A program made the translations under genes and the position numbers. Below the pieces are notes generated by a model that saw only the letters and a list, made by a program, of their open reading frames with translations, made no database searches and was not told where the DNA came from. 64,000 nt of DNA from the IMG/VR virus record IMGVR_UViG_3300005841_000939. The stretch is one strand, 5' to 3'. Below are positions 5,270 to 25,488 of the stretch, piece after piece. This DNA comes from a virus. Its lineage: Duplodnaviria; Caudoviricetes. The first letter of the stretch is position 1. Each line of letters opens with the position of its first letter.

Positions 5270-5887
5270 ATGTGTACAGACACAGATAAATTTTACAAGG
5301 GCAATATTTACAGAGCCCGTGACGGAAAAACCACATTGGTCAGCACACAAAAGACTGGCCTCAATGATCAAAATGTGTGGGTAATTCACAGTACCACTAA
5401 CCCAAAATACAGCAAGGGTCAATGGTTCCGTGGTTCAATGGGTCATGCACTCCCATGCAAGAATCCTCGTGGTTTCACTGAATCGGAACGTGAATGTCGT
5501 TTGCATCAACTTGATGCAGTTTCATATTCAGGTGATGATTTGTCATGGAATGATGTTGATAAGCTGGTCCTCAGCGATGCAGACAAGCTAGTCCCTAATC
5601 TCGCAATTGATGACATGGTTTCATTGAATGCGCCAGTCAAGGCAGTTGAAGTCAAAAAGCCTGTAGCATCAGTTGCAGCTCCTACAGCTAAAAAGCTGTC
5701 TGTTGCTGTTGTTCGTGATCCACAAGCCAAACCAAGCACTTCAAACGCCAAGGTCAGTGCAAAGGTAAAGAAGGTTGTTGCAAGCACTGGTTGGAAATCA
5801 CAGAAGCGCGATAGCTCAGGGCGTTTCCTCAGCAAATCAAAGGTTGTTGCAGGTCAGAAGCGTGATCGTAACGGACGTTTCGTCTAA
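5270..5887 (+). CDS. hypothetical protein with basic A/K/V/P-rich tail and two RDxxGRF motifs
   Basis: AAGGA RBS; KRDSSGRFLSKSK and KRDRNGRFV at C-terminus. Confidence 0.75.
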   Translation: MCTDTDKFYKGNIYRARDGKTTLVSTQKTGLNDQNVWVIHSTTNPKYSKGQWFRGSMGHALPCKNPRGFTESERECRLHQLDAVSYSGDDLSWNDVDKLVLSDADKLVPNLAIDDMVSLNAPVKAVEVKKPVASVAAPTAKKLSVAVVRDPQAKPSTSNAKVSAKVKKVVASTGWKSQKRDSSGRFLSKSKVVAGQKRDRNGRFV

Positions 5888-5895
5888 GAGCACGC

Positions 5896-5922
5896 TTGAC
5901 AGCAGGCCTTAAGGCGTAGACT
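5896..5922 (+). promoter_or_regulatory. sigma70-like promoter, 15 bp spacer
   Basis: TTGACA-N15-TAGACT. Confidence 0.7.
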
Positions 5923-5926
5923 TCAC

Positions 5927-6610
5927 ACATCGAAGACGATGATTCGCTAATAAGCTCGAAAGAGTAAAAAGGTGGTCATCTGACATCGGGCTCTTTGATG
6001 CATAGGGTGCAGACAGAACGGATGAGTCTAAACCAGTAATGCCGGGTACGGTTGATCTAACGGTAACTCCATTTAACGTGTGGAAGCCCAAAGATACAAA
6101 GGCCATGCATGAACGGTGTTCAAAGCCGAACATAAGATAAGCCGGAAACTTCTGCAACACCGATTCCTGGGATAGCAAAAAAACATTTGCCACCCATATA
6201 CCCAGGAAAGAAATGGGTTCACATATCTAGGAAGGGGCGGATAGACCTTCATCCCTGGCTCTATGTGAAACATTAACATTGTGGTGGCAGCAGGCGCAGT
6301 TGGTGAAAGCCTATTGCGATTGAAAACCGAGACTCTGATTGATGCGTGGAGGGTAAAGGGCCGTAGATCCGCATCAATAAATTGACTAGTGGCATCTAGT
6401 CAGCATCTTATCCCATGCCAGGGATGTTGCTCCACGTTTGAAAATTCCTGTGGAGGACGATATAGCGGGTGTTAATAACACTCAAAATGTGCAGCGGAAT
6501 GCTGCATATATGCGTATCGGTGCAAGAGTAAGTCAATGCGCGTTATAGCAACGTCGCCTAGGTTTTGAGACAGGATCAGCCCAATAAAGGGGTTGGTCCT
6601 GTTAGTTTTT
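5927..6610 (+). ncRNA. candidate large structured ncRNA (about 680 nt)
   Basis: promoter upstream, no credible ORF, many local and long-range helices and GAAA loops, 3' terminator-like ACAGGATCAGCCC..GGGTTGGTCCTGT plus T-run. Confidence 0.6.
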
Positions 6611-6647
6611 CCTTGCGGCCTTACCTGTTCTGGATACATTAAGGCAT

Positions 6648-6815
6648 ATGGCTGTGAGCATCAGGAAAATATCTGATTTTCATATGTTCCTGGAGATTCC
6701 AGGGCATAAGCTCATGCTTGTCACTGTCTTCGGACGCATGAGCATTTCCAATAAGCCAATGCCTCCAACCCATTCATATCAGATTATGCGAAGGAATAAT
6801 CATAATAGATCCTAA
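6648..6815 (+). CDS. 55 aa hypothetical protein
   Basis: after TTGCGG-N16-TACATT promoter (6613-6640); below ORF-track cutoff. Confidence 0.45.
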   Translation: MAVSIRKISDFHMFLEIPGHKLMLVTVFGRMSISNKPMPPTHSYQIMRRNNHNRS

Positions 6816-7032
6816 TTACATCTATACATTTATTTCTGAGGCTGGCAATCGTGGCGCAGGAAATAGTGTTGATGCAGCAATCAGGTCGGCACTTGGTGTT
6901 GACGCTCCTAAAAACCTGAAATATGGAAAATATGAATTGAGCAAGCCTCCAAGTACATATTTTAGGTCTTGTGATATTTTCCAGGTGCTTCACTCTGAAG
7001 AAGAAGTCCTCATGGGGAAATTATACGTCTGA
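6802..7032 (+). CDS. 76 aa hypothetical protein, possible ATA start
   Basis: open frame IIDPNYIYTFISEAGNRGAG..GKLYV with AAGGA 6 nt upstream but no ATG/GTG/TTG. Confidence 0.4.
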   Translation: MIDPNYIYTFISEAGNRGAGNSVDAAIRSALGVDAPKNLKYGKYELSKPPSTYFRSCDIFQVLHSEEEVLMGKLYV

Positions 7033-7144
7033 ATTTTTGTTGCATTGTCTAGAAGCATGATATAGGATCCTGACAGTCCTGTTATCTTCTTGACTCAAAG
7101 ATGTCTAGGGTATATGAATAGTATTAAGCCCTAAAAGCATCCAT

Positions 7145-7384
7145 ATGTTTACTACTGCAACACATTATTACATTGTCTTCAAAGCAAGTAATGGAGAAGT
7201 CCTTTTCTTGCATGAGGATGATGATGGTTACAAGTTGCGTTTAAAGGCTGATAATGATGATTCAATTTGCTGTTTTGAATTAGGATCGGAAGCACATTAC
7301 GAAATGGGTCGGGCTGAATTGACCTTTCCGAAAATAAGGCTTGAAATCCTTCCTGAGGCGTGTACAGTGTGCGTAAGAAAGTGA
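7145..7384 (+). CDS. hypothetical protein
   Basis: 79 aa ORF downstream of TTGACT at 7090. Confidence 0.6.
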   Translation: MFTTATHYYIVFKASNGEVLFLHEDDDGYKLRLKADNDDSICCFELGSEAHYEMGRAELTFPKIRLEILPEACTVCVRK

Positions 7385-14004: not shown

Positions 14005-14042
14005 CGTTGACATTTGACCTTACCTGTTAAACTGGCGGTAGC

Positions 14043-14495
14043 ATGAGTAGAAAAAATGTTAAATGGAGGAATGGGAGTATTCTCCCCGAACATGCTAGGG
14101 CGCTAGAAACTTTTCACCTGCCCAAAGAGATAGCAACCTTTATTCCGCCAACTGTTGGAACTCATCAGATTAACCATCGCTTTACCGTCACCATCCAGGG
14201 AAGTATGGCAATCAGACAATCATATGAAGAAATGGTCCCTATTGGTTTGGATATGCGTTTAGCTTTTGCTACAGCCATGAACCATATCCCTAAAGAGCAA
14301 TGGGAAACGGTATGGAATGCAATTGCAAACGCCATGGAAAACCCCTTAGCGTTCAATCAAATTGCTGATCGTATCATTGATGAAGCAGAAACACACATCC
14401 CGAATGCTCAAGTAAAGATTCCCCAATCAAAAAGAGGGCCGACATTGTGGGCAAAAGATACAAAAATAAATGTTGAAGTTGAAGAACTTGAATAA
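14043..14495 (+). CDS. hypothetical protein
   Basis: follows TTGACA-N15-TAAACT promoter (14007-14033). Confidence 0.7.
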   Translation: MSRKNVKWRNGSILPEHARALETFHLPKEIATFIPPTVGTHQINHRFTVTIQGSMAIRQSYEEMVPIGLDMRLAFATAMNHIPKEQWETVWNAIANAMENPLAFNQIADRIIDEAETHIPNAQVKIPQSKRGPTLWAKDTKINVEVEELE

Positions 14496-18393: not shown

Positions 18394-18469
<76 letters not shown>

Positions 18470-18542
18470 TATTCAAATGCTCTTTAGAGACAACGGATCA
18501 TACATTTGCAAGTAATTTAGGAGAGCAAATTCTCCTCAGCTC

Positions 18543-18631
18543 GGGCGAGTACCGGACTGTTCTTATAAAGCAGATTACCGTAATCGGTGGCGATAGTATC
18601 AATGTGGGTTCGAGTCCCACCTTGCCCACCA
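18543..18631 (+). tRNA. atypical tRNA-like element (UAU loop, no D-arm in normal position)
   Basis: 7 bp acceptor GGGCGAG/CTTGCCC, T-arm GTGGG-TTCGAGT-CCCAC, ACCA end; CTGTT-CTTATAA-AGCAG arm starts only 7 nt after the acceptor strand. Confidence 0.6.
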
Positions 18632-18665
18632 AAAAGGCGTTGATTTACTTCACTTGTATGATAAA

Positions 18666-18752
18666 CGGCTTGTGGCGGAATTGGCAGACGCGGGGGACTT
18701 AAAATCCCCTCCCAGCAATGGGGTGCGGGTTCGAGTCCCGCCGGGCCGACCA
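18666..18752 (+). tRNA. tRNA-Leu(UAA)
   Basis: cloverleaf with long variable arm, loop CT-TAA-AA, encoded CCA. Confidence 0.95.
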
Positions 18753-21970: not shown

Positions 21971-22142
21971 CAGGTCTCCATTCTAAGAACGCTTGGCATG
22001 TGTCAACAATACCTTCTTAACATGCATTTAAGCCTAGTCAAGAATTACCTTAGTATCTGATTAGACCTAAAAATGTTTATTGCTTTTTCACCTTAAGTCT
22101 TTACAGTCATCAACATACCAATCATACAGAAAGCGAATAATC

Positions 22143-24488
22143 ATGCTTGTAGCAACCAAGTCGGAACAAGTCGGTCGCCATGGGGAAATGAAAGTTTCCA
22201 CTCTGACCATCGATAATCCTGGCATGATGCTTGCGCACATGTTTGATACGATCTATACCAACAAGGCAAAAATCGTTGTTCAGGAGATCGCTTGCAATTG
22301 TCGCGATGCTCACAGAGAAGTAGGAAAGGCTGATGTTCCGATTACCATCAAGCTGCCGAACAAGCTTGACACTTCTTTGCAGTTCATTGATGAGGGTCCA
22401 GGCCTTTCTCCCCAACGAATCGATGCGATATACAACAGTGTCGGTGCATCTACCAAGCGCGGCAGCAACGATCAAACTGGCGGGTTTGGTATCGGATCAA
22501 AAACTCCTTGGTCCCTGACCAACATGTTCCTGGTCAAGACAACTGCCTGGGAAGGAGAAGGTGAAAATCGCGAATTGGTATATCGCGAATACACCATGCT
22601 CCGTGAAGGATTATTTTTCACTTGCAATCAAACTGGTGATCCTGAAGTGAAGGACCCTGCTCTGAATAAGAGCGGCACCATTATTGAAATGCAACTGGAG
22701 GAAAAGGAATGGCAGAATATTGAATCAGAAATTCAGAAAATCTTTATCTCATGGGATCCCAAGCCAAATATCCTTGGTTATTCTAGCGGTGAATGGGTTT
22801 GGAAAACCAGACTTGATCCGCTGTTTGAGGGAAAAGGTTGGAAAGTTTACAATGGTCAGGCTTATTACAATCACACGCATGTCTTCATGGACAATATTCC
22901 ATATCCGTTGGATTGGAGCGCAATGGAAACTGCGTTTGTCAGCTTGATGACTGATGTTTCAATTCCTGGAACTGCCACGGAAGAAATGAATGACATCGTC
23001 ATCAATAAGAACAATGATCCGATGACAAGTGCAAGAATTCGCACGTTGTGGCATCAGGCAGCAATCCTGCAAAATGTAACTTGCGGATTGTTCTTCAAGA
23101 CGGGTGAACTGGATCCCGCATTGAATCGTGAATCGTTGCAGTATACCCCTCAGACTGTTCGGCGCATTGTGGCTCGCATGTTGGCTGCAACTCAAATCAT
23201 CCTCACCACATATCAGAAAAAGGTTGAAGCTGCACCAACGTATGTTGCTGCATTGACCATGTGGAAGGAGTTGGCCAGCAACGTTATCAGAAATCTTATT
23301 TCAGGTTCGCGTGCCAACTGGCGGGGACTGCCTCTGAATACTGCCATGACGATTCACTTCCCTGAATCAGTCATTGTAAACAAAGTGATGCTCCGCAGTA
23401 ATTATAGCCGTCGCGCCAAGTTTTCAATGCGGCAAGAGGAAAGCATCAAACTGGAGGGAATTGATCAAAAGAAGCAAATTTTCGTCAACACTGGCTACAA
23501 CGAACGCAATGTACGCCATTACATGGAGCAAAATAACTTTGGTGGAAATAGCTATGACAGGGAATGCTTATATTTCCTGAGCTTCAAGCCAGGGTTCTCT
23601 GATCGTACTCTTCCACTCCCTGACATTGATGCTAAGGTCATGGAAGAAAGGTTCTTCAAGTCTGATCTATGGGTCGGTTTGGAACATGGTGGCAACAGTG
23701 ATCAGTTCCCGAAAAGGCCGATTATCAGAAATTCAGCAACGGGAAGTCGCGGACCGAAGAAGGATCCCCTCGCTGCCAATATATGGAATTCTGGTTTGAA
23801 GAAATTCCATGCATCTGATGTGATGCTGTCAGTTGACGAGGAAGATGAATCTGAGGATGCCGATCAAAAGGACATCGTCTATGTCTTGACTTTCCGAAAG
23901 GACTGCAACGAATTCAATGGCGACCAATTGAATACGTTGGAACATGCATTGAACATTTCCATCTATGGCGTTTCGGAACGCTTGAAGCATCGCATCCCTG
24001 ATCATTGGGTATCACTTGGGGAAAAGGCACGTGAATGGTTGTCTCAACAGCCTTTGGATTCAACTATCGCCGAATACATTCGCAAGCGCAATATCAATTC
24101 GGTGATGATCAATGCTTGCAAGGATATTTCTGCATCATTTGCAAGCATCATGGCAGATCCGGATTTGGAACAACTTGTCACTGCACCCGATTGGATTGAA
24201 ATGGCCCGTCTCTTCAAGACGACATTCAATTCAGAAACTCAATTGGATACGACTCCTGAATCCAATATCCTCAAGAAAATCAAGGACGTCAACAAAGTCC
24301 TGAGCAATCCACTGACGATTCCCGATATGCCTGAAGCAGAAGAAACCTCTCCTGAAGCAGAAGCTTTGAAAGCTCTGGTTGAAAAGTATTACTTGGTGAG
24401 GCAGGCTGCTGCAAGCTATACGCTTGATGCAACAGTGCTCAATCGCATCATTCCAGACCTGGCTATCTTCATTAATGCCAAAGGATAA
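22143..24488 (+). CDS. rIIA: rIIA-like protein (GHKL ATPase N-terminus)
   Basis: IYTNKAKIVVQEIACNCRDAH, DEGPGLS, STKRGSNDQTGGFGIGSK motifs; upstream of rIIB. Confidence 0.9.
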   Translation: MLVATKSEQVGRHGEMKVSTLTIDNPGMMLAHMFDTIYTNKAKIVVQEIACNCRDAHREVGKADVPITIKLPNKLDTSLQFIDEGPGLSPQRIDAIYNSVGASTKRGSNDQTGGFGIGSKTPWSLTNMFLVKTTAWEGEGENRELVYREYTMLREGLFFTCNQTGDPEVKDPALNKSGTIIEMQLEEKEWQNIESEIQKIFISWDPKPNILGYSSGEWVWKTRLDPLFEGKGWKVYNGQAYYNHTHVFMDNIPYPLDWSAMETAFVSLMTDVSIPGTATEEMNDIVINKNNDPMTSARIRTLWHQAAILQNVTCGLFFKTGELDPALNRESLQYTPQTVRRIVARMLAATQIILTTYQKKVEAAPTYVAALTMWKELASNVIRNLISGSRANWRGLPLNTAMTIHFPESVIVNKVMLRSNYSRRAKFSMRQEESIKLEGIDQKKQIFVNTGYNERNVRHYMEQNNFGGNSYDRECLYFLSFKPGFSDRTLPLPDIDAKVMEERFFKSDLWVGLEHGGNSDQFPKRPIIRNSATGSRGPKKDPLAANIWNSGLKKFHASDVMLSVDEEDESEDADQKDIVYVLTFRKDCNEFNGDQLNTLEHALNISIYGVSERLKHRIPDHWVSLGEKAREWLSQQPLDSTIAEYIRKRNINSVMINACKDISASFASIMADPDLEQLVTAPDWIEMARLFKTTFNSETQLDTTPESNILKKIKDVNKVLSNPLTIPDMPEAEETSPEAEALKALVEKYYLVRQAAASYTLDATVLNRIIPDLAIFINAKG

Positions 24489-24555: not shown

Positions 24556-25488
24556 ATGTCAAAGAACAAGCGCAAAATCATCCTCACTGAGAACCAGGTG
24601 GCACTGACCATCAAGGGGCAGACGAGAACCATCAACAAGAAACATCCTGCATTCAAAAAGGTGCTGGACCTCATTCACGTCGGTGGCAGTGATGAAGACC
24701 TGTTGAAGGCCATCGAACCCGTCAAAGCCATCAACACCAGCAAGAAGGCTGCGAATTGGGGCATCAAGGTGGTGGATGGTTCCATCAAAATGCAGGAAGA
24801 GGTGCTGCCCGCTGATATTGCGGATACCATTCTCGAATTCAAAGCTGCAAACGAACCGTTCGAACCGCTGGTGAAGTTCTACGAGAACTGCAAGCTGAAT
24901 CCTGATGTGCGTGTCAAGGAAGGTCTCTTCCGGTTCTTGAAGGCTCATCGCTTCCCTCTGACGGAAGATGGTTGCTTCATCGGCTATCGCAAAGTCGCAA
25001 ACGACTTCAAGGACTTCTATACTGGCAAGCTCGACTTCTCCCCCGGCCAGACTGTGACCTTGGATCGCAGTCTTTGCGATTCGGACAATAACAATACGTG
25101 CTCCCGTGGTTTGCACGTCGCCAACTTCCGCTATGCGAAGGAAGTCTATCATCCTGGCTCCGGCAAGATGATCAACGTCAAGATCAATCCCCGTGATGTG
25201 GTCGCATTCCCAACGGACTATCATTTCGAGAAAATGCGCGTGTGCGCAATGTACGTCATCGGCGAGAATGGTACCAGCGAAGCTGATGCCCAAGAATATC
25301 AGGAGCTGTTCAAGCAGCAGAATCCTGATTGGAAAAAGAATGACAAGGACGTTGACGAAGCTGAGGAAGAAGACATCGAAACTGGTGCTGTCAGTGTCAA
25401 GGGCAATCCCCAGGATGCTGTCGAAATTCCGGTCTGGATGTCACAGAAGCGTGACGCTCGCGGTCGCTTCGGCAAGGTCAAGAAGTAA
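24556..25488 (+). CDS. rIIB: rIIB-like protein
   Basis: LTEDGCFIGYRKV, CSRGLHV, VKINPRDVVAFPTDY..KMRVC motifs; own promoter TTGACA-N16-TAGAAT (24492-24519). Confidence 0.92.
   Translation: MSKNKRKIILTENQVALTIKGQTRTINKKHPAFKKVLDLIHVGGSDEDLLKAIEPVKAINTSKKAANWGIKVVDGSIKMQEEVLPADIADTILEFKAANEPFEPLVKFYENCKLNPDVRVKEGLFRFLKAHRFPLTEDGCFIGYRKVANDFKDFYTGKLDFSPGQTVTLDRSLCDSDNNNTCSRGLHVANFRYAKEVYHPGSGKMINVKINPRDVVAFPTDYHFEKMRVCAMYVIGENGTSEADAQEYQELFKQQNPDWKKNDKDVDEAEEEDIETGAVSVKGNPQDAVEIPVWMSQKRDARGRFGKVKK

Follow-up and report, generated by a model that had tools for sequence, protein, structure and literature searches.

The window analyzed here, a 64,000-nucleotide (nt) stretch of viral DNA (IMG/VR record IMGVR_UViG_3300005841_000939), probably carries at ~5929-6610 on the + strand a stand-alone gene whose product is a structured non-coding RNA of ~680 nt. 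The window encodes rIIA (22080-24488), rIIB (24556-25488) and several tRNAs, which identifies its source as a T4-like (rIIA/rIIB) jumbo phage, ~380 kb in size and from rhizosphere soil. The most likely reading, to which we give a rough probability of 0.7, is that the RNA is real, transcribed and structured, and that its family is uncatalogued so far. The unit is conserved in relatives, contains no open reading frame (ORF), has its own transcription signals, and exhibits strand-specific conserved structure with compensatory changes, which together are the generic attributes of a structured non-coding RNA gene.

Boundaries, coding capacity and conservation of the unit

A first-pass annotation of this region had placed a promoter at 5896 and a terminator-like hairpin at about 6568-6610. 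Both are present, and with the RNA gene between them they define the unit:

5896..5922, + strand: sigma-70-type promoter with -35 box TTGACA (5896-5901), a 15-nt spacer and the likely -10 box TAGACT (5917-5922)
5929..6610, + strand: putative RNA gene, ~680 nt in the window and ~637 nt in the related contig L001; a conserved block with no ORF and a consensus fold
6569..6610, + strand: intrinsic terminator found by a terminator scan, a 14-bp stem (6569-6603) followed by GTTTTT (U-run 6605-6609)

The promoter and the U-run both lie on the + strand, and the position of the promoter places the probable transcription start at ~5929. A standard promoter scan expects a spacer of 16-18 nt, and for this reason does not list the promoter at 5896. 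The layout TTGACA-N15/16-TAnnnT also occurs on the + strand at 1554, 14007, 20507 and 24492, in the 44% GC part of the window, and the sites at 14007 and 24492 sit just 5' of genes starting at 14043 and 24556. The spacer of these recurring sites is shorter than the usual 17 nt, and the layout looks like the usual early-promoter form of this phage.

Comparison with related sequences supports the same boundaries. L001, a 3.8-kb soil contig reached through the 205-residue protein encoded upstream of the RNA (52% protein identity), aligns over positions 1945-2619 with window positions 5894-6614 at ~70% identity. The homology starts at the -35 box (TTGACA) and stops at the T-run of the terminator; the promoter hexamers TTGACA and TAGACT are unchanged in L001, and spacer positions differ. 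A third lineage, L058, is partial, its contig beginning within the RNA and spanning the last ~190 nt, and X5, a soil DNA run, contributes two 151-nt pieces that are ~90% alike to the RNA. The terminator stem carries a C-G to G-C change in L001 and L058, and the length and sequence of its loop differ in L001, L058 and X5.

The region does not appear to encode a protein in any of these lineages. Between 5888 and 6740, TAA, TAG and TGA occur throughout in six of six frames, in line with the initial judgement that no credible ORF is present; because all three stop codons interrupt every frame, no recoding opens one. These stops and the absence of codon periodicity lead us to reject both a hidden ORF and an alternative genetic code: substitutions between the window and L001 are distributed 71/62/70 by codon phase, and the indel lengths (5, 2, 4, 2, 1, 1 and 2, 10, 3, 1, 1, 40, 3) are mostly not multiples of three. 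Gene callers call nothing in the L001 copy of the RNA, and exact matching of ten spurious translations from the RNA region recovered only the window's own 55-residue call. The first-pass annotation had named a conserved protein ORF in homologs as grounds for abandoning an RNA; none was found, and the RNA is non-coding in every lineage.

Nucleotide identity between the window and L001 varies strongly along the unit:

Core, 6332-6462: 85% (93% in a core-only alignment)
6519-6566: 85%
5' domain: 69%
Middle, 6051-6218: ~40%
6463-6518: unrelated hairpins instead in L001 and L058
Third-codon positions of three flanking genes: 46-66%

The differences in L001, L058 and X5 fall in loops, bulges and a swappable expansion segment. 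These comparisons indicate that the RNA is under selection as nucleic acid, and a constrained core with a free linker and swappable peripheral hairpins is a pattern typical of structured RNAs.

The unit is an accessory cassette: two or three related phage lineages carry it, and more distant phages lack it at the corresponding position. The 205-residue gene and the RNA unit are separated in L001 by two unrelated genes, g156 and g134, and the upstream neighbors in the window differ; thus, the RNA unit moves with its own promoter and not with its upstream neighbor. The more distant phages L002-L005 and L057 have the 205-residue gene or the g185 gene and lack the RNA unit at the site. These phages were recovered by neighbor-protein searches, in which the 205-residue gene led to L001 and the RNA-less L002-L005, g185 to the RNA-less L057, and g83 to L058 and L059; g79 has no further relatives among 1.84 billion representatives, and IMG/VR contains no close relative of rIIA or of either flanking protein. 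L027 (from JGI) and L059 (from Logan) are identical to L001, and runs X3 and X4 contain the same phage at 100% identity. The data amount to 2.3 independent sequences, namely two full-length copies and one partial copy, plus 151-nt fragments.

Wider searches indicate that the family is rare, with three lineages, all from soil or rhizosphere. A blastn search ('distant' mode) with the full unit found no match among 50,697 phage records (INPHARED), exact-pattern scans of IMG/VR with four conserved blocks returned only chance matches, and the four matches in a scan of GTDB genomes are all chance. An 18-mer scan of JGI metagenomes returned 33 loci, one of them real (L027). The RNA is single-copy in the 64-kb window: a covariance model of the core (R1) finds no paralog there, no distant copy in 52 loci, and 0 matches at E <= 1 in the whole RaK2 genome. 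No antisense target of at least ~15 nt was found elsewhere in the window. A small leaf-litter metatranscriptome, X6, contains one 151-nt contig ~92% like positions 6345-6495, and the flanking 2 kb of the RNA have no coverage at all in this run. This fragment is the sole hint of transcription, and only a hint because the run was found with the same query, its contigs are strandless, and DNA may contaminate RNA libraries; we take the sequencing runs as proof neither of transcription nor of habitat.

Domain architecture and evidence for a conserved fold

All of the helices listed in the first-pass annotation occur in the sequence. Those read directly from the sequence, on the + strand, are:

6218-6225 / 6262-6269, + strand: TTCACATA / TATGTGAA
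6339-6346 / 6370-6377, + strand: TTGATGCG / CGCATCAA
6384-6389 / 6396-6401, + strand: GACTAG / CTAGTC
6430-6435 / 6450-6455, + strand: CTCCAC / GTGGAG
6468-6474 / 6479-6485, + strand: GGGTGTT / AACACTC
6490-6495 / 6501-6506, + strand: TGCAGC / GCTGCA
5955-5964 and 6302-6311, + strand: GAAA-capped stems

Combined with the comparison to the other lineages, these helices outline the following domains:

5930..5998, + strand: 5' domain, a long irregular hairpin with helices 5930-5937/5990-5998, 5938-5941/5977-5980 and 5954-5957/5962-5965 (GAAA-capped in the window)
6008..6156, + strand: variable middle domain, closed by the invariant helix UGCAGA 6008-6013 / UCUGCA 6151-6156
6219..6268, + strand: hairpin domain, UCACAUA 6219-6225 / UAUGUGA 6262-6268 plus inner pairs
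6283..6328, + strand: hairpin domain with stem CGCAGU 6295-6300 / AUUGCG 6313-6318
6332..6529, + strand: 3' core, a multi-helix junction closed by ACUCU 6332-6336 / AGAGU 6525-6529, with hairpins a-d and an expansion segment
6403-6407 / 6519-6523, + strand: inner closing helix of the 3' core, GCAUC / GGUGC
6338..6378, + strand: core hairpin a, with an internal loop containing invariant GUGGAGGGUAA.GGGCCGU; two compensatory pairs in L001
6383..6402, + strand: core hairpin b, with invariant loop UGGCAU (6390-6395); stem A-U to G-C in L001
6409..6426, + strand: core hairpin c, with invariant loop AUGCCA (6415-6420)
6430..6455, + strand: core hairpin d, CUCCAC 6430-6435 / GUGGAG 6450-6455; invariant between the window and L001
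6463..6516, + strand: variable expansion segment, with two window-specific hairpins (6468-6485 and 6490-6506)
6530..6565, + strand: 3' hairpin domain, GCGCGUU 6538-6544 / AACGUCGC 6550-6557, within AAGUC/GGUUU

Substitutions in the other lineages support many of these helices. In the 5' domain, the apical stem changes from CUC/GAG to CGU/ACG in L001, giving two compensatory pairs, and a G-U pair of the basal stem becomes A-U. The closing helix of the middle domain is the same in both phages, and its interior is ~40% identical with indels, so that any fold drawn for this interior is tentative. A linker joins the middle domain to the hairpin domain at 6219-6268, in which L001 has one compensation (C-G to G-C) and one wobble change (A-U to G-U). 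The stem 6295-6300/6313-6318, which reads UAUGGU/AUCAUG in L001, has three compensatory pairs plus one wobble change and is by these comparisons the single helix with the best support. The helix that closes the core is ACUUC/GAAGU in L001, with two adjacent compensatory pairs.

Within the core, the variant positions of X5 in hairpin a (6351, 6356, 6363, 6365, 6368 and 6369) all fall in loops or bulges. The loop of hairpin b is identical in the window, L001 and X5, and X6 differs at the closing position 6396. For hairpin d, the 3' strand in L058 is CCCAGG; this contig begins inside the loop, so that the 5' strand lies outside it. The expansion segment is replaced by one unrelated hairpin (GCUUGC/GCAAGC) in L001 and by two other unrelated hairpins in L058. 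The 3' hairpin has a C-G to A-U change in L001 and L058, in a block that is nearly invariant in three of three lineages.

Folding statistics point to the + strand. The minimum free energy (MFE) of 5927-6610 on this strand is -228.3 kcal/mol, with z = -4.4 against the dinucleotide shuffles that the first-pass annotation had proposed as a control (0/20 as good); the - strand gives z = -1.9. The consensus folding with RNAalifold takes as input the two full-length copies, from the window and L001, and is summarized below with its controls (SCI, structure conservation index):

RNA alignment, + strand: -131.6 kcal/mol, SCI 0.59, 152 pairs, 25 compensated
RNA alignment, - strand: -87.7 kcal/mol, SCI 0.47, 28 compensated pairs
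60 class-preserving column shuffles: -66.3 +/- 6.0 kcal/mol, SCI 0.37 +/- 0.03 (max 0.44), compensated pairs 13.2 +/- 4.0 (max 21)
Coding flanks at 58-66% identity: SCI 0.32-0.38
Coding flank at 75% identity: SCI 0.50

The coding flanks are fair or conservative controls, because only 60% of the columns of the RNA alignment are identical. A blind scan of all column pairs finds six helices that span 5 bp or more and carry two or more compensations, versus 1.5 +/- 1.2 in shuffles. When the fold of one sequence is carried to the other copy, seven doubly compensated pairs are in register in the well-aligned parts, versus 0-3 with slid partners.

Taken as a mechanism, these features suggest that host RNA polymerase would start at the sigma-70-type promoter TTGACA-N15-TAGACT and stop at the strong intrinsic terminator. 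The transcript would then fold into a 5' hairpin domain, a fast-evolving middle, two hairpin domains, the constrained 3' core junction (6332-6529) and the hairpin at 6530-6565. Compensatory changes support this outline of the probable fold; its details are tentative. The 3' core would be the working part, most likely acting in trans as a scaffold or binding surface for a partner from the phage or the host, and our best guess for the RNA as a whole is a trans-acting scaffold or decoy in which the conserved 3' core is active.

The core also contains two loops that may interact. The loops of hairpins b (UGGCAU, 6390-6395) and c (AUGCCA, 6415-6420) are exact complements, and both are invariant in the window, L001 and X5, which suggests a loop-loop contact, formed either within one molecule or between molecules. 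By a rough estimate the chance of such a complementary pair among ~15 loops is ~0.1, which makes it a lead and no result. The linker between hairpins b and c looks, by our own steric estimate, too short for easy contact within one molecule. It is conceivable, if improbable, that the b and c loops pair between molecules, head to tail, to form dimers, rings or a cage as in the phage RNAs ROOL and GOLLD, and that the RNA would represent a third, unrelated self-assembling phage RNA class.

An alternative pairing involves hairpins a and d. GUGGAGG is present twice, at 6346-6352 and 6450-6456, and the lone CUCCAC (6430-6435) is able to pair with either. An 8-bp pairing of GCGUGGAG (6344-6351) with CUCCACGU (6430-6437) excludes hairpins a and d; in the other conformation GCGUGGAG pairs within its own hairpin, with 6370-6372 and the inner segment. 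The C to U change at position 6345 in L001 covaries with G to A changes at both candidate partners, 6371 and 6436. The alternative pairing may represent a conformational switch, or it may be due to chance.

Competing explanations and the neighboring genes

The observations that weigh against a stand-alone structured RNA concern its fold and its position. As to the fold, when the single-sequence MFE structure is carried over to the other copy, ~52% of changed pairs are still paired in the well-aligned parts, which some slid controls equal, and 45% over the whole length; any single drawing of the fold must therefore be wrong or unsupported in large part. Two full-length sequences preclude R-scape-grade statistics, RNAalifold has latitude to favor covarying pairs, and the compensated-pair count is not strand-specific (25 on the + strand, 28 on the - strand). 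In our reading, about ten helices and the domain outline are supported, and any full drawing is provisional. As to position, the terminator lies just ahead of the start region of g83 in three of three lineages (15-40 nt, with extra bases between them in the window). The gap in L001 is ~15 nt and contains only a ribosome-binding site, with no room for another promoter, which also fits a leader.

A giant cis-acting leader or attenuator is accordingly the most serious rival, although we regard it as unlikely. The RNA would then be the 5' untranslated part of a g83-g79-g185 transcript and the terminator a regulated stop. The RNA and g83 occur together, and both are missing in the more distant L002-L005 and L057. 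Pairing of the conserved AGGGCCG (6357-6363) with the 3' strand of the terminator stem is conceivable; however, this candidate anti-terminator pairing shows no covariation, and the terminator stem is long and uninterrupted at 14 bp. At ~680 nt the leader would far exceed any known riboswitch or attenuator leader, none of which, to our knowledge, comes near this length. Its most constrained part is a multi-helix core located 40-280 nt upstream of the terminator rather than an expression platform. Finally, ~190 extra bases lie between the terminator and the g83 homolog in the window, and this homolog lacks an ATG, GTG or TTG start, yet the RNA is intact.

A stand-alone RNA gene is also preferred over a decaying remnant of a dead gene, intron or mobile element, without present function and with incidental hairpins, which we consider quite improbable. 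A remnant would account for an accessory insertion that is absent at the same site in related phages, for a middle third that at ~40% identity is indistinguishable from neutral, and for a family so rare that it was not found in IMG/VR, INPHARED, GTDB genomes, or JGI metagenomes beyond one contig. It would not account for a core that is 85-93% identical versus ~50% at neutral sites, for the retention of the promoter hexamers and of a terminator whose stem has a compensatory change, or for compensatory changes in about ten helices. There is also no trace of a former reading frame, no match to a group I, group II or other ribozyme at E <= 10, and no flanking or tandem repeat was found.

The least probable explanation, which has very little to recommend it, is an element that acts as DNA (a replication origin, packaging site or cluster of protein-binding palindromes): inverted repeats that keep complementarity would mimic covariation, and doubly changed pairs are as frequent on the - strand (28) as on the + strand (25), but the consensus fold is strand-asymmetric (-131.6 versus -87.7 kcal/mol; SCI 0.59 versus 0.47), an asymmetry that requires G-U pairs, themselves meaningless in duplex DNA, the helices are long-range and nested (for example 6332-6336/6525-6529), a promoter and a rho-independent terminator bound the unit on one strand, and no iterons, tandem repeats or AT-rich unwinding region were found.

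The genes around the unit have several features of their own. The g83, g79 and g185 proteins have no informative match in Pfam, PHROG or ESM Atlas. A homolog of the 83-residue product of L001 g83 is encoded at 6808-7032 of the window (51% identical over 76 residues), in a frame that is open from 6742 and has no ATG, GTG or TTG before 6937. Relative to L001 and L058, ~150-190 extra bases (~6615-6805) lie between the window terminator and g83. This stretch is hairpin-rich, with CCUGGA/UCCAGG at 6689-6703 and GCUCAUGC/GCAUGAGC at 6710-6745, and folds with z = -2.8. Its 10-bp helix between 6642-6652 and 6754-6764 buries the ATG at 6648, where a 55-residue ORF (6648-6815) starts, and ATA codons at 6802 and 6805 follow a Shine-Dalgarno-like GAAGGA (6790-6795). 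The extra stretch could point to an insertion, to a damaged gene or to an unusual start codon.

Upstream, the C-terminus of the 205-residue protein contains a duplicated motif, QKRD..GRF(L/V) (encoded at 5801-5830 and 5855-5884), which is kept in the L001 homolog. In L002, L005 and L057 a TTGACA promoter follows right after the 205-residue gene and is overlapped by a hairpin, AAACCCCTGAGAG...CTTTCAGGGGTTT. L001 g134 (1546-1950), directly upstream of the RNA, encodes a segment that resembles the ribosomal protein L7/L12 C-terminal domain (PF00542, E = 1.2e-6, 29.2 bits, cut-off 25.9); a 145-residue relative in L057 has a faint match, and the window has no homolog. On a larger scale, the G+C content of the window falls abruptly near ~30000, from ~44-48% at 1-30 kb, where genes are mostly on the + strand, to 26-33% at 30-55 kb, where most ORFs are small and on the - strand.

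Relation to known structured RNAs

No Rfam 15 family accommodates the RNA. The cmscan search proposed in the first-pass annotation was run on the window copy, L001 and L058 and matched no family, either at the gathering score or at E <= 10; at the latter threshold the search of the window covered 5700-6900. This negative result includes GOLLD, ROOL, OLE, HEARO, raiA, introns, RNase P, tmRNA, 6S and the signal recognition particle (SRP) RNA. The initial proposal of either a member of the ROOL/GOLLD class or a new class is thus narrowed, in that membership of ROOL or GOLLD fails at cmscan and a new class of large structured phage non-coding RNA is supported. Its remark that no RNase P, tmRNA or intron hallmark is visible agrees with the absence of cmscan matches and with ARAGORN, which finds no tRNA or tmRNA.

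Individual candidates were rejected on the same grounds. Group I and group II introns (RF00028, RF00029 and group II D1-D4) give no match at E <= 10, and the unit is intergenic, with a promoter and terminator of its own. RNase P RNA, tmRNA, 6S and SRP RNA have no cmscan match, and ARAGORN adds no tRNA or tmRNA. HEARO, omega RNA and the other guide RNAs of IS200/605 nucleases are likewise unmatched, and the neighboring genes encode small proteins of no recognized family. For a mimic of a ribosomal RNA domain, blastn-short against E. coli rrsB, rrlB and rrfB, with E. coli as a stand-in for the host, gave only 8-15 nt, no better than the reverse-strand control, and cmscan gave no match to small-subunit or large-subunit ribosomal RNA.

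Structured RNAs longer than 500 nt are rare outside the ribosome, RNase P and introns, and each such class so far (GOLLD, ROOL, OLE, raiA and HEARO) has turned out to have unusual biology or architecture. The RNA described here, which comes from an uncultured jumbo soil phage, is compact, has clear boundaries and is under strong constraint. It offers a defined construct, either the ~680 nt unit or the ~235 nt 3' core, and a model for mining metagenomes. OLE (RF01071) is similarly large (~600 nt) and ornate. It is chromosomal, in extremophilic Firmicutes, and it dimerizes, with protein partners encoded next to it; in addition to the lack of a cmscan match, the RNA here differs in that the small genes travelling with it (g83, g79) have no recognizable RNA-binding domain.

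GOLLD (RF01998) resembles the RNA more closely in kind, being large (600-800+ nt), phage- or prophage-borne and multi-domain, with no ORF and no known function. The 3' region of GOLLD is universally conserved, its 5' region less so, and its linker is variable (bioRxiv 10.1101/2024.12.08.627333); here too, the 3' core is constrained and the middle is near-neutral. GOLLD and ROOL assemble via conserved kissing loops (bioRxiv 10.1101/2024.12.08.627333), which in GOLLD join separate copies; the two invariant loops here are exact complements, and self-assembly is conjectural. Unlike GOLLD, the RNA has no cmscan match at E <= 10 in three of three lineages. GOLLD and ROOL are frequently located in or beside tRNA arrays, whereas no tRNA adjoins the RNA here: none was found in 5800-7200, and the nearest tRNAs, at 18394-18749 and 25546, begin ~12 kb from the RNA. 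ROOL (RF03087), of the same size class (~580 nt) and phage- or prophage-borne, is likewise highly structured, and no protein partner of it is known. Kissing loops and A-minor contacts hold it together as an octameric cage made of RNA only (bioRxiv 10.1101/2024.12.08.627333). The RNA here differs from ROOL in the lack of a cmscan match and in that its domains look serial and a helix of its own closes the 3' core. Should the complementary loops prove to mediate assembly, there would be a third phage RNA class, unrelated to the other two, with RNA-only quaternary structure. GOLLD and ROOL are the closest known things in kind, and the resemblance is one of layout, not of homology or membership.

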